From Nitrospinota bacterium (GTDB lineage: Bacteria > Nitrospinota_A > UBA7883 > JBLYYQ01): DNA of 35,140 nt. Positions 5,942 through 20,121 of the stretch are shown piece by piece. Both the position numbers and the translations under genes were made by a program. The stretch's first letter is position 1, and every line of letters starts with the position of its first letter. The notes under the pieces are model-generated. The model did no database searches, was not told the DNA's origin, and saw only the letters and a list, made by a program, of their open reading frames with translations. The DNA is taken from positions 1 through 35,140 of the forward strand of contig JBLYYQ010000046.1 in the NCBI GenBank assembly GCA_048550035.1, in the 5' to 3' direction.

Positions 5942-6355
5942 CTATGACTCGTCAGACTCTTTAATAATACGCCGCCGTTTTTTCGGAGCATGTGCTTCAT
6001 TTCTATCAACAAGCTCTATGATAGCCATTGGAGCGGCATCGCCATTTCTAATACCTAGCTTATAAATTCGAGTATACCCACCTGCCCTATCTTTATACCT
6101 GTCAGATAGTTCTGAAAAAATCTTTGCCACCACCGACTTGTCTCTCACAAATCCGGCCGCCTTCCTGCGAGTAGCAAGGGTTCCCTTCTTGCCGAGTGTA
6201 ATGATCTTCTCTGCAACACTTCGTAATTTCTTAGCACGGGGCAAGGTTGTTGTGATTCGCTCAATATCAAGTAACGATGTGGCCATGTTACGAAACATTG
6301 CCTTCCGATGACTACCGGACATATTAAAACGTTTTTTACTATTTAGATGACGCAT
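5942..6355 (-). CDS. rplQ: 50S ribosomal protein L17
   Basis: MRH...[13 protein letters not shown]...ITTTLPRAK...RAGGYTRI...[12 protein letters not shown]. Confidence 0.98.
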
Positions 6356-16524: not shown

Positions 16525-17337
16525 CTAGCTATCCTTCTTATTGTCATCTTTATTTTCATCTGCCTTGACAGACTCTTCTTTAACAGTGTCAGCCGCTGCC
16601 GCTGAAGATTCCTCTTTAGCTAAATCGACTTTTGCAGCCTCCACAACTTCCTCTATATGCTTCTGACTTCTCATCTTGCGTTGCTCTTCTAACTTGCGAG
16701 CCTCTTTCCCAAAATAGAAATTACCTCTGAATATCCAAGTCTTGATACCTATAATACCAAAGGTGGTATTCGCTTCTGCAAATCCATAATCGATATCTGC
16801 TCTGATTGTATGAAGCGGCACTCGACCTTCTCTGTACCATTCTGTTCTTGCTATCTCAGCTCCTGCTAGACGACCGGCACAATTTATCCGTATCCCTTTT
16901 GCGTTAAAGCGCATTGATGTTGCTACCGCCTTCTTCATCGCACGTCTAAATGCTACTCGACGCTCCAACTGCAATGCTACATTCTCTGCTACTAACTGGG
17001 CTGATAACTCAGGTTTGCGTTCCTCTTTTATATTTAAAAATAGTTCCTTACCTGGTAATGCCGCCTGAATCGACTTCTTTAGCTTGTCTACTTCATGCCC
17101 CTTCTTGCCAATAATTATGCCTGGGCGCGCAGCATTAATATGAAGGCGAACATTGTTCCCTTTTCGCTCTATCTGTACAGATGAAATCCCTGCATGGTAG
17201 AGATCCTTCTTAATCATTTTGCGCAATCTTAGATCAGAATGAAGATTCTCTGCGTAACCTTTTTCAGAATACCAGTTAGATTCCCAACCTTTTATTATTC
17301 CGACTCGAAACCCTATTGGATGTGTTTTCTGACCCAT
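16525..17337 (-). CDS. rpsC: 30S ribosomal protein S3 with long charged C-terminal tail
   Basis: [11 protein letters not shown]...[11 protein letters not shown]...[12 protein letters not shown]...GRVPLHT. Confidence 0.99.
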
Positions 17338-17338
17338 T

Positions 17339-17782
17339 TTACTCTTTCTCTTTTCCTGTTTTTGTTGCTACGGCATCTGACTTTTGCGCAAGATTCTCTG
17401 ATGACTGAACCTCTTTTGATGAGAGTTCAGTTTTTGATTTGAGATCCTGACCTAACATTACTGTTATGTGTGAAGTTGGCTTACGGATCGGGGTCGCTCT
17501 ACCTCGAGCTCTCGGAAGGCTTCGCTTGTAAATCGGACCGCCATCAATCCAAATCTTGCTCACCAGCAACATATCAGTATCCTCTATATTCTTATCCTCT
17601 GCATTTGCAATTGCAGAATTCAATGTCTTGAGCAATACTTTTGCTGATCTCTTTGGGCTAAATGTTAGTATCCGTTGTGCTTCTGTCACATGCTTGCCTC
17701 GGATCAGATTTGCTACCAACCTCGTCTTTTGTGGACTCAACCTCACAAACCGTACTACCGCTTTAGCTACTTCGTTGCTCAT
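17339..17782 (-). CDS. rplV: 50S ribosomal protein L22 with C-terminal extension
   Basis: [17 protein letters not shown]...SAIANAE...PRARGRA...KPTSHIT. Confidence 0.98.
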
Positions 17783-17820
17783 TATAACTATTTCTTATTC
17801 AAGTTAATGTCTGTTAATTA

Positions 17821-17883
17821 TACGTGGAGGAAAGTTTAACCGTCTGCGTCTTGCTCGCTAGTCTTACTAGGCTTCCGCACGTA
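17821..17883 (-). ncRNA. Candidate structured 5' leader RNA of the rplV-initiated ribosomal operon
   Basis: Minus strand: UACGUG/CACGUA closing helix, GGAAG/UUUCC helix, CUAGU-AAG-ACUAG hairpin. 32/63 GC inside very AT-rich flanks. Begins at the predicted transcription start. Confidence 0.5.
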
Positions 17884-17890
17884 AACAATT

Positions 17891-17918
17891 ATTATTACCT
17901 ATTTTTTTACACTGTCAA
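17891..17918 (-). promoter_or_regulatory. Putative sigma70 promoter driving rplV operon
   Basis: Perfect TTGACA (17918-17913), 16 nt, AATAAT (17896-17891); A-tract upstream resembling an UP element. Confidence 0.6.
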
Positions 17919-17938
17919 CATTTATTTTGTTTTTTTTA

Positions 17939-18310
17939 CTATCGGTTATTTACAACTCGCTCGCCACGCTTAATAAGCCAGTTGTCAAAATCATCCGGAC
18001 TACTCAATAGCTCATCGTAAATCGGATAATACCGTTCACAGTCAGGTGGTTTATGATCCCTACATATACTAGGGCGGCTCTCATAAATAGTACAAAAGCT
18101 ATTCTTATCAAGGTAGCTACAGTCAGTTTGCAATAGTTGATACCACCTCTTATTCCTTATGAAATAATTTATATACTTAAAGTGTAGCTGCCATCTTATA
18201 TTTGTTTTCTCTAGCTTCGTCCGAGGGCGCTTAACCTGCTCTTCAATACCTCTGCAACATGCTCCTTTGCAACCTTCGCAAAGCTTTAAGCTCATCTTCT
18301 TCGCACTCAT
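17939..18310 (-). CDS. YkgJ-family cysteine-cluster (Zn/Fe-S chelating) protein
   Basis: CEGCKGACC...CSYL....CTIYESRPSICR; ATGA overlap with the upstream gene. Confidence 0.85.
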   Translation of the reverse strand: MSAKKMSLKLCEGCKGACCRGIEEQVKRPRTKLEKTNIRWQLHFKYINYFIRNKRWYQLLQTDCSYLDKNSFCTIYESRPSICRDHKPPDCERYYPIYDELLSSPDDFDNWLIKRGERVVNNR

Positions 18311-20121
18311 GATAATATCGAAAGGATCGTCTCAATCTCTACTGCTGGACTCATCATATAGACACCATCAACAGTATCTCGAAAGCAATCTAAGGTCTCT
18401 TTGGCTATTTTAGCTCCTATATCTTTTGCTCCATCCTGATTCTTACTTAAATCGTTACGGATCGCTGATGGAATCGTCATACCTGGAACTTCGTTATGTA
18501 AAAATTCTGCCATCTTATGTGATGTCAATGGTAGGATCCCTATCAAAATTGGGATCTTAAAGCTTTCTACTGATTTTAGAAATTTCTCAAATAGTCTATT
18601 ATCATATACCGGCTGAGTCATACAAAACTCAGCTCCAGCTTCAACTTTGCTCTCGAATCGACGGAGTTCTTCATCTATATTTAACGCTCCTGGGTTACCA
18701 CCAACTCCGATATGAATACTGGTCTTACCTTTAATCGGACTCCCTGCTATATCAACACCTCTGTTTAAATTACTAATCAACTTCACTAATCCGATTGAAT
18801 CAAAATCGTATACCGCAGTCGCATCTGGGTACTTCCCTAATTTCGGAGGATCTCCAGTAATTATCAATATATCTTTGATACCTAGTCCATCAGCACCTAA
18901 AATATCGGCTTGCATCCCTATCAGGTTCCGATCGCGGCAGGTATAATGGATAATCGGCGTTACTTTACTCTCTTGCTTTAGTATCAGCCCAAAGGATAAC
19001 GAATTCATCCTTGCCATTGCTCGTGGTCCGTCTGGAATATTCACAAACTCTATCCCCTTAGATTTGAGCTTGCTTACAGCTCTAACTGTATGTCTATAGT
19101 CAGAGCCCTTAGGTGATAGCAGCTCTACAGATTGAACCCATTCCTTTGCCGCTAGTTTTGATGAAAAATTTGTCTTTAATTCTGTTGCACACGGAACTTC
19201 CTTGTCTATGTTATCTTTTGATAGCAACACCGATTTCACCTCAAGCCTCGATGGTGAAAGTGCCTTCGCTCCTTTTGAGAGTGCTCTTATATGATCTGGG
19301 GTTACTCCGCAGCAACCTCCTACTATTGATGCTCCAGACTTTATAAAACGTTTCCCATATGTTAAAAGATATTCAGGTGTCGTTAAGTATAGTAGCCGAT
19401 CATCGCTTACTTTCGGCATCCCTGCATTGGGCTGCGCTGAAATTGGGAGCTTCGTATATTTGGAGAGTAGTTTAACACTCTCCAACATATGACTAGGTCC
19501 TACAGAGCAGTTTGCCCCACAAGCGGTTATATCTAACGGAGTTATAGATTCTACAAACTGCTTTATATCTGCCTCTAGCTCTTCTTTGTTATCTTCTATA
19601 AATGTCATCTGAGCAATAATCGGAATCGTACTACTAATCGATCGGATGCTCTTAATTGCAGCTACTAATCGCTCTACACTATGGAATGTCTCTAATATGA
19701 TTAAATCAGAGCCTTCATCTATCAAGCTACTCGCTTGCTCTTCAAAAATAGCAGTAGCCATCTTATCGCTTGTCTGACCTAACGGTAGTCCTATCGGTCC
19801 GATAGTCCCTGCAACATACACGATCCCTTGAGCAACCTCTTTTGCCAAACGGACTCCTGCCCTATTAATACTATCTACTTTTGATTCTAGGTTATGTTTT
19901 GCTAACTTCTCTCGGTTGGCAGCAAAAGTGTTCGTCTGAATTATATCAACACCTGCCTTTATATAGTCGCTATGCAGCAGACGTATCTTGTCTGGATCGG
20001 TTAAGTTAAGCTCTTCAAAGCAGGTTGCATCGCTACCACCTCTCTCATAAAGCATCGTTCCTGTTGCACCATCGCATACTAGGATCCGTTTGCTTAATGC
20101 GTCAGCAAATGGTTCAATCAT
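18307..20121 (-). CDS. yitJ: Bifunctional homocysteine S-methyltransferase / 5,10-methylenetetrahydrofolate reductase (YitJ-type)
   Basis: DGATGT, TNTF, GANC, PNAG, GGCCG in the HMT domain; HYTCRDRNL, TGDPP, KVEAGAEFCMTQP, FLHNEVPG in the MTHFR domain. Confidence 0.92.
   Translation of the reverse strand: MIEPFADALSKRILVCDGATGTMLYERGGSDATCFEELNLTDPDKIRLLHSDYIKAGVDIIQTNTFAANREKLAKHNLESKVDSINRAGVRLAKEVAQGIVYVAGTIGPIGLPLGQTSDKMATAIFEEQASSLIDEGSDLIILETFHSVERLVAAIKSIRSISSTIPIIAQMTFIEDNKEELEADIKQFVESITPLDITACGANCSVGPSHMLESVKLLSKYTKLPISAQPNAGMPKVSDDRLLYLTTPEYLLTYGKRFIKSGASIVGGCCGVTPDHIRALSKGAKALSPSRLEVKSVLLSKDNIDKEVPCATELKTNFSSKLAAKEWVQSVELLSPKGSDYRHTVRAVSKLKSKGIEFVNIPDGPRAMARMNSLSFGLILKQESKVTPIIHYTCRDRNLIGMQADILGADGLGIKDILIITGDPPKLGKYPDATAVYDFDSIGLVKLISNLNRGVDIAGSPIKGKTSIHIGVGGNPGALNIDEELRRFESKVEAGAEFCMTQPVYDNRLFEKFLKSVESFKIPILIGILPLTSHKMAEFLHNEVPGMTIPSAIRNDLSKNQDGAKDIGAKIAKETLDCFRDTVDGVYMMSPAVEIETILSILS

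Follow-up and report, generated by a model that had tools for sequence, protein, structure and literature searches.

The locus examined here raises the question of what becomes of regulation when the most conserved gene string of bacteria is cut. In the window, i.e., the whole 35,140-nucleotide stretch of Nitrospinota DNA that was analyzed, rplV, coding for uL22 (147 aa; 17339..17782, minus strand; Pfam PF00237, E 1.5e-39), is the first gene of an rplV-to-rplQ cluster. It is preceded by an element of 63 nt (17821..17883, minus strand) that consists of three helices, P1, P2 and P3, along with a conserved loop. Most likely, the rplV-led operon has here a true structured leader RNA of restricted lineage distribution, which probably serves as a small, lineage-specific control of ribosomal protein production.

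The operon split between rpsS and rplV is real and old. On the downstream side, rplV is followed by rpsC, rplP, rpmC and rpsQ, and the run of same-strand ORFs continues to about position 5942; judged by position and size, the ORFs past rpsQ would be the remaining spc and alpha genes, to rplQ. On the upstream side, the split is marked by an unrelated gene coding for a CxxCxxCC-domain protein (17939..18310, minus strand; Pfam PF03692), followed by genes for a homocysteine-methyltransferase/MTHFR fusion and an SLT/LysM protein. The rpsJ gene and the rplB-rpsS genes of the same assembly are found, in the usual order, on a 3.5-kb contig, on which the ORF ending just before rpsJ looks, by eye, like tuf, and a convergent, unrelated ORF lies 3' of rpsS. 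The rplV junction is not an assembly artifact, because positions 17300-18400 are spanned without interruption by contigs from three public runs belonging to two studies. Two of these runs may be the origin of the DNA, and the third (X4) represents a closely related strain, with 10 differences in 1101 nt. Moreover, the split is common to all 28 class relatives examined, with no S19 within about 1.5 kb upstream of uL22. S19 is present upstream of uL22 at the single out-of-phylum locus, and among 80 metagenome loci containing other uL22 genes it is directly upstream in 78, the remaining two being too short upstream. The fusion gene upstream of the split (18307-20121, minus strand) codes for 604 aa with homocysteine S-methyltransferase and methylenetetrahydrofolate reductase domains, and shares 4 nt with the beginning of the CxxCxxCC gene.

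A promoter-like site is found in front of rplV, with a -35 hexamer, TTGACA (17913..17918, minus strand), separated by a 16-nt spacer from a -10 hexamer, AATAAT (17891..17896, minus strand); the two hexamers match the consensus at 11 of 12 positions. The +1 of the rplV transcript is predicted at around 17886-17882, at or just before P1. In 29 of 30 loci, a perfect TTGACA, a spacer of 16-18 nt and a -10-like hexamer were found at 58-181 nt upstream of rplV, suggesting that the class gained a consensus promoter at this place and that the families then acquired differing leader structures. We propose that the element would be the 5'-terminal structured domain of the leader of a long r-protein mRNA, running from rplV through rplQ, and that in this lineage the rplV-rplQ operon, cut off from rpsJ-rpsS, would be served by a strong promoter of its own.

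An earlier, sequence-only reading had drawn attention to the element, and the minus strand from 17883 to 17821 reads exactly as quoted there, with the same three helices. P1 pairs UACGUG (17878..17883) with CACGUA (17821..17826) over 6 bp; P2 pairs GGAAG (17872..17876), part of the invariant block GCGGAAGCC, with UUUCC (17829..17833) over 5 bp including one G-U; P3 is a perfect 5-bp hairpin, CUAGU(AAG)ACUAG (17858..17870), all on the minus strand. The general layout would then be a closing helix, P1, a bulge of 1-2 nt, P2 in the form GGAAG(CC)/(GG)YUUYC, P3 as a small hairpin immediately 3' of the P2 5' strand, and a loop of about 24 nt, the conserved 5' part of which would read GAGCRAGACGC. 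In the window this loop block is GAGCAAGACGC (17846..17856, minus strand), and its counterpart in the sister family f5, described below, is GAGCGAGACGC, with 10 of 11 positions identical between the two lineages. Read on the minus strand, the P1 3' strand of the window is followed by UAAUUAACAG. The A/U-rich linker (17783..17820, minus strand; 38 nt) carries two AUUAAC motifs and a weak Shine-Dalgarno (SD) stretch, AAGAAA, so that the 3' end of the element lies 38 nt ahead of the rplV ATG (17782). AAGAAA is the sole SD-like stretch before rplV and is weak, but comparable to those of other genes of the cluster. The earlier description of an element that starts at the predicted +1 and ends 38 nt before an ATG with no clear SD agrees with the promoter prediction and with the linker sequence. 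So does its figure of 51% GC in AT-rich flanks: the GC content is 50.8% in the element, against 18.4% in the linker and 16.4% in the upstream intergenic DNA (38.8% in the whole window).

Taken alone, the window element does not fold better than expected. Its minimum free energy (MFE) is -14.7 kcal/mol, as compared to a mean of -12.98 +/- 2.38 for shuffled sequences (z -0.72), and 50 of 200 shuffles fold at least as well; the z-score of the full window leader is -0.17. The consensus fold of the window element has -9.6 kcal/mol as against the MFE of -14.7. In the ensemble of the window, the pair probabilities are 0.67-1.0 for P1 and 0.88-0.96 for four pairs of P2, whereas P3 is weak (0.12-0.17). 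A GCG/CGC arm, put forward earlier as a possible additional helix, has a probability of 0.23 in the window and, in its register, is not conserved in the alignment; it is not supported. The start region of the window rplV is predicted to be unstructured and open. The f5 elements, in contrast, fold far better than their shuffles (z -3.89 and -3.55).

Two genomes of f5, G009 (locus L015) and G004 (locus L020), have rplV leaders of the form CCGCGG-C-GGAAGCC-CGGC(GCAU)GCCG-GAGAGCGAGACGCC...GGCUUCC-A-CCGCGG. A covariance model built from these two leaders only (R1) was searched against 135 kb of 31 loci and matched the window at 17822-17882 on the minus strand with 23.4 bits (E 0.016 for the 135 kb), at the same homologous spot; no leader of any other family in the 31 loci was matched. 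The near-palindromic nature of the helices led R1 to match both f5 elements on the reverse strand as well, with 26.3 and 22.2 bits. Searched genome-wide, R1 gave no match at E<=1, and at that scale the window match alone is not significant; its weight derives from its position, which is the one homologous spot. A second model, R2, built from the window and L020, was run on the 31 loci and on 33 genomes of the phylum. It matched only the three elements in the 31 loci, and in the genomes it gave one match in each of 3 of the 33, every time before rplV, as well as a further match of 20 bits (E 0.69) elsewhere in G025.

Covariation was counted on the alignment of the three sequences, which represents two independent lineages and was fitted to the structure model. 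In this alignment all 47 of 47 pair cells (three sequences, 16 pairs) are standard pairs, and 5 of the 16 pairs are changed on both sides, two of them in P1 and three in P3. The latter are three of the five P3 pairs, which are compensatory with respect to f5 (CCGGC/GCCGG); two P2 pairs alternate between G-C and G-U, through one-sided changes. Of 500 shuffles, 1 reached the observed values, and in a control in which the 3' partners were slid by 1-3 columns, only 38-53% of the cells were paired and 0-1 double changes were found. RNAalifold, run on the same alignment, predicted all three helices, P2 with one additional pair in f5, and added a mini-hairpin of 3 bp, GCR(AGA)CGC, in the conserved loop block, which is broken in the window. 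Unpaired sequence is also kept: GCGGAAGCC is invariant in all three sequences and GAGCRAGACGC is identical at 10 of 11 positions. Because f5 is GC-rich, changes from U-A to C-G on an inherited inverted repeat are partly expected from compositional drift. Still, 16 of 16 pairs and the two blocks persist between lineages whose uL22 is only about 52-60% identical and whose flanking leader sequences cannot be aligned. We regard it as very probable that a conserved RNA structure exists at the element.

Between the two f5 species, which belong to genus g5, the element is identical at 63 of 67 positions, the promoter at 36 of 40 and the coding sequence at 298 of 331, as compared to 30 of 38 for the linker and 101 of 159 for the upstream DNA. 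Of the four differences in the element, two are substitutions in the long loop, one is a loop indel and one turns a G-C into a G-U pair. The strain of run X4 shows one change within the element, at 17865, the first base of the P3 loop, so that no helix is altered; it also differs at 17890, immediately downstream of the -10 hexamer. The spacing between element and AUG is maintained, with 38 nt in the window as against 37 and 36 nt in the f5 leaders.

The distribution of the element is narrow. That conservation and covariation would be found in relatives sharing the split proved true for one sister family, f5; the other 30 of the 33 phylum genomes do not have the element. Thus, among the 32 other genomes of the phylum, two additional ones, from one other family, carry it. 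The remaining 30 keep the split and the promoter and have different leaders, several of which are structured (z down to -3.0). Since these 30 genomes, those of f2 and f3 included, have the split and lack the element, it is not required to run a split operon. In a tree of S3, the window groups with f3, f5 and f2 (support 85/81), with no resolution inside this group; therefore, either f2 and f3 have lost or remodeled the element, or its origin lies in a group narrower than the tree resolves. A k-mer scan of the leaders of 14 genus representatives found none shared beyond the family-wise shuffle maxima; TTTCC, ACGGTT and TAACAG were nominally enriched only. Searches further afield returned no closer relatives: none of 80 metagenome loci retrieved with a uL22 alignment matched R1, and a search of genome contigs with the uL22 protein found one locus, which is not split. 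A DNA pattern scan of genome contigs hit at least 119 loci, the pattern being unspecific, and among the matches listed the one that adjoins L22 is G004 itself.

The element had been presented as a candidate new leader RNA, and neither a known family nor a dispersed repeat accounts for it. No family of Rfam 15 (4227 models, r-leaders and riboswitches among them) matched anywhere in the window at the gathering score, and at E<=10 the region 17600-18100 gave one irrelevant match (E 9.1), away from the element; the f5 copy gave only a miRNA match (E 7.8) on the opposite strand, and the loci of 20 relatives gave none at all. The element is present in a single copy in the 1.49-Mb assembly, consistent with the one R2 match per genome, and a search of the assembly with 163 nt of promoter plus leader returned that sequence only; the next matches spanned 17-28 nt, at E 0.009 or higher.

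Only some of the r-protein operons have documented autogenous control. In E. coli the leader of the S10 operon precedes rpsJ and combines an L4-stimulated, NusA-dependent attenuator, formed by a hairpin and a U-run, with translational control. Like the element, it is a structured 5' leader in the operon family that contains rplV, on a long polycistronic r-protein mRNA. In contrast, the element precedes rplV, rplD belongs to the other half of the operon, and there is no terminator-like site and no Rfam match; indeed, the region 17300-18400 contains no terminator-like site, nor an S10-type attenuator hairpin with a U-run before rplV. The operators for S8 in the spc operon and for S4 in the alpha operon are mimics of rRNA sites that overlap internal start regions (rplE, rpsM). 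Their regulators are encoded in the same transcription unit, as S8 and S4 would be in the operon headed by the element; unlike these operators, the element is separated by 38 nt from the first gene, the start region of which is predicted by folding to stay open. A candidate L2 leader of the Alphaproteobacteria, found by comparative analysis upstream of rplB-rpsS-rplV-rpsC, has a ligand that is deduced only from the nearest gene (PMC7247131). It resembles the element in being a candidate leader within the S10 gene series and differs from it in lineage, in position, before rplB, and in structure; no family of Rfam 15, this motif included if it is among the models, matches the window or the loci of the relatives. 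No leader directly before rplV was found in the literature searched, the nearest being this L2 candidate, and none is in Table 1 of Eckert and Weinberg (2020; PMC7247131).

The sequence-only reading had interpreted the element as a feedback element of the split operon. That it is the leader of a genuinely split r-protein operon has held up; feedback, like the binding of any particular protein, is still something that we infer. Specifically, the element could be an r-protein feedback operator, i.e., a cis-regulatory site for an rRNA-binding protein encoded downstream, which is the function that we favor among those considered, with a likelihood somewhat below even. GCGGAAGCC, P3 and GAGCRAGACGC would in that case form the recognition surface. 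In f5 the P2 3' strand can alternatively pair with the start-codon region, and the fold state of P2 could thus gate translation. In L015, the P2 3' strand together with its flank is complementary to the start-codon region (AUGGAAGCCAUU), with a duplex of -26.1 kcal/mol that none of 500 shuffles equaled; the duplex of L020 has -17.2 kcal/mol, and 28 of 500 shuffles were as good. The MFE structure of the L015 leader with the start of the coding sequence uses the start pairing along with a 5' UUUCCG:CGGAAG hairpin and P3. The same duplex has only -4.9 kcal/mol in the window, where 472 of 500 shuffles were at least as good. Because the window has no such pairing, a start-site switch is plausible for f5 but not as a shared mechanism. 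In the window, the element would act through interference of a bound protein with 30S loading, or else via mRNA stability; interference is proposed because the end of the element, at about -38, coincides with the upstream limit of the ribosome footprint. In f5 (L015 1894-2038, minus strand, and L020), the start pairing together with a possible pairing of the 5' UUUCCG to the 5' strand of P2 gives a predicted two-state leader that is not present in the window.

Could the element imitate a site in rRNA? The sequence-only reading had noted a likeness to 23S rRNA next to A2058. The E. coli sequence, GCGGCAAGACGG, had been given correctly, but the relative G001 has GCGACAGGACGG at that place, and the match is no better than chance: the local alignment of the window element to 23S and 16S rRNA scored 16, against a shuffle mean of 18.9, and 197 of 200 shuffles scored at least as high. 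With the motif missing from the 23S of the relative and the alignment no better than for shuffles, A2058 mimicry was rejected. Another likeness was noticed post hoc, in 23S sequences that are those of relatives, the 23S of the three carriers themselves being absent from the assemblies. The 23S rRNA of G001 (L254, about 1575-1615) reads GGGGUUUCC-AGGCAAAUCC-GGAAGCCC-ACUACUC-CGAGACG and aligns to about 1480-1520 of E. coli, and that of G016 (L277) reads GGAAGCC-AUUAACCC-CGAGACGC. Positions 1502-1526 of 23S are assigned to H58, a helix directed towards uL2 (PMC5071890). H58 of both relatives is like the leader in that GGAAGCC precedes RAGACG, the two blocks being 7-8 nt apart in the rRNA, and like P2 in that GGAAGCC is paired with a (G)GYUUCC strand. 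Unlike in the leader, the topology of the strands is permuted, and in the rRNA the lower stem includes the second block. The pattern GGAAGCC-N5-30-RAGACG has 58 matches in 29.2 Mb-strands of five relatives, i.e., about 0.009 expected per 4.5 kb of rRNA; only two of the five order relatives searched with the H58 pattern keep the first block. On these comparisons of sequence, rRNA mimicry via H58 is a lead, at best a weak one, and not a finding. A fuller proposal would be that a new autogenous operator arose after the S10 cut in one Nitrospinota subclade, that it mimics H58 with its GGAAGCC helix and RAGACG strand and is bound by a large-subunit protein of the rplV-rplQ unit, and that in f5 it became coupled to a switch between P2 and an anti-start-codon pairing. 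We think this combination improbable; if it were true, the element would be the first case of a feedback leader immediately ahead of rplV.

Other functions may be envisaged for a structure in this position. The helix at or next to the +1 might simply shield the mRNA, which is polycistronic and very long, against decay that depends on the 5' end, neither a specific ligand nor feedback being involved. This would be consistent with P1 starting 0-3 nt from the predicted +1, with P1 and P2 being the robust helices of the window ensemble and with a start region that is predicted to be left open in the window; the presence of unrelated hairpins at the same place in other families, e.g., UUUUCCC-N6-GGGAA in f8, also fits a generic need for 5' structure. 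However, such a stabilizer leaves unexplained why unpaired GAGCRAGACGC, the invariant GCGGAAGCC and P3 are all kept, and the 5-10 nt or so of single strand that precede P1 in f5 would weaken the protection of the end. On balance, we consider a stabilizer with no other role rather unlikely. A translational switch sensing a ligand or a condition, as a riboswitch or an RNA thermometer does, in which the fold of P2 frees or holds the start-sequestering strand, seems less likely still. The complementarity to the start codon in L015, matched by none of 500 shuffles (28 of 500 for L020), and the adoption of the start pairing by the MFE structure of the L015 leader would speak for it. Against this, the window lacks start complementarity (equaled or bettered by 472 of 500 shuffles), the two f5 genomes, being closely related, amount to one observation, the GGAAGCC at the start of the coding sequence simply encodes the conserved Met-Glu-Ala, and no Rfam riboswitch family matches.

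It also seems conceivable that the leader recruits Nus factors to the operon of about 12 kb for processive antitermination, as in rrn operons, through a boxB-like hairpin and a boxA. The rrn leaders of 15 class genomes have a promoter, a 5' hairpin starting with UUUC(C) and a boxA, GGUUCUUUGAAAUYG, and, like the rplV leader, the class rrn antitermination leaders (boxB-boxA-boxC) present a strong promoter, a 5' hairpin and then an A/U-rich motif; the window has AUUAAC twice, and GCUCCAUUAACGA and GUUCAUUAACGA in the f5 linkers resemble, by eye, the boxA consensus. The boxA consensus of the lineage, however, is not detectable in the rplV leaders. A position weight matrix made from 17 rrn sites and applied to 30 rplV leaders scored them like shuffles: the best score in the window was -2.9 bits (p 0.81), and 3 of the 30 leaders reached p<=0.05. 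In addition, no k-mer is shared across the leaders beyond the shuffle maxima. With the matrix negative in the rplV leaders, an rrn-type boxA/Nus site was rejected, and we hold antitermination to be very improbable. Finally, the element may have no function at all and be the remnant of a GC-rich inverted repeat, kept by descent between two related families, with GC drift as the source of the covariation. This would agree with its occurrence in two lineages only and its not being found in 30 of 33 phylum genomes, with most of the compensatory changes being AT-to-GC transitions and with a window copy that is thermodynamically unremarkable. But it does not account for the persistence of 16 of 16 pairs and two blocks in the face of a uL22 identity of about 52-60% and an unalignable flanking leader, for an element better conserved in genus g5 than the linker and the upstream DNA, or for the maintenance of a GC island in a spacer of 18% GC in an AT-rich genome, and we give the absence of function little credence.

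The reading of the element as a structured leader RNA is the one that we retain. The f1/f5 element is, among the differing leaders of the class, the one with comparative support. Its present value is that of a well-founded candidate, because the clade is uncultivated and the sequences are three. If a ligand were found, the element would exemplify the recent birth of an r-protein operator and would add to the known RNA-protein recognition pairs.

Further interpretations of the conserved sequence were considered and rejected. A leader peptide was discarded as the short ORFs, starting with GTG in the window and with ATG in f5, read the conserved block in different frames, as judged by eye. A transcription-factor operator was rejected because the arms of P3 covary rather than staying conserved, and a K-turn at the P1/P2 junction because no tandem G-A is seen there by eye.

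Some features of the f5 genomes and of other leaders were noted in passing. In G004, the frame of uL22 (L020 1606-1936, minus strand) shifts a few codons after the ATG, and the ORF from that ATG codes for 79 unrelated residues; this is likely an assembly error. G009 has two different partial 16S genes, on contigs C182 and C117 (L250 and L251), which may reflect contamination of the bin; the leader on C182 resembles the rrn leaders of the order, and the C117 copy, which follows a tRNA-like stretch, does not. In f8, the rplV leaders (L026-L034 and L036-L038) start, much as the class rrn leaders do with their UUUC(C) and hairpin, with a short conserved hairpin, UUUUCC(C)-N6-GGGAA, located right after the -10 box, TAGACT.
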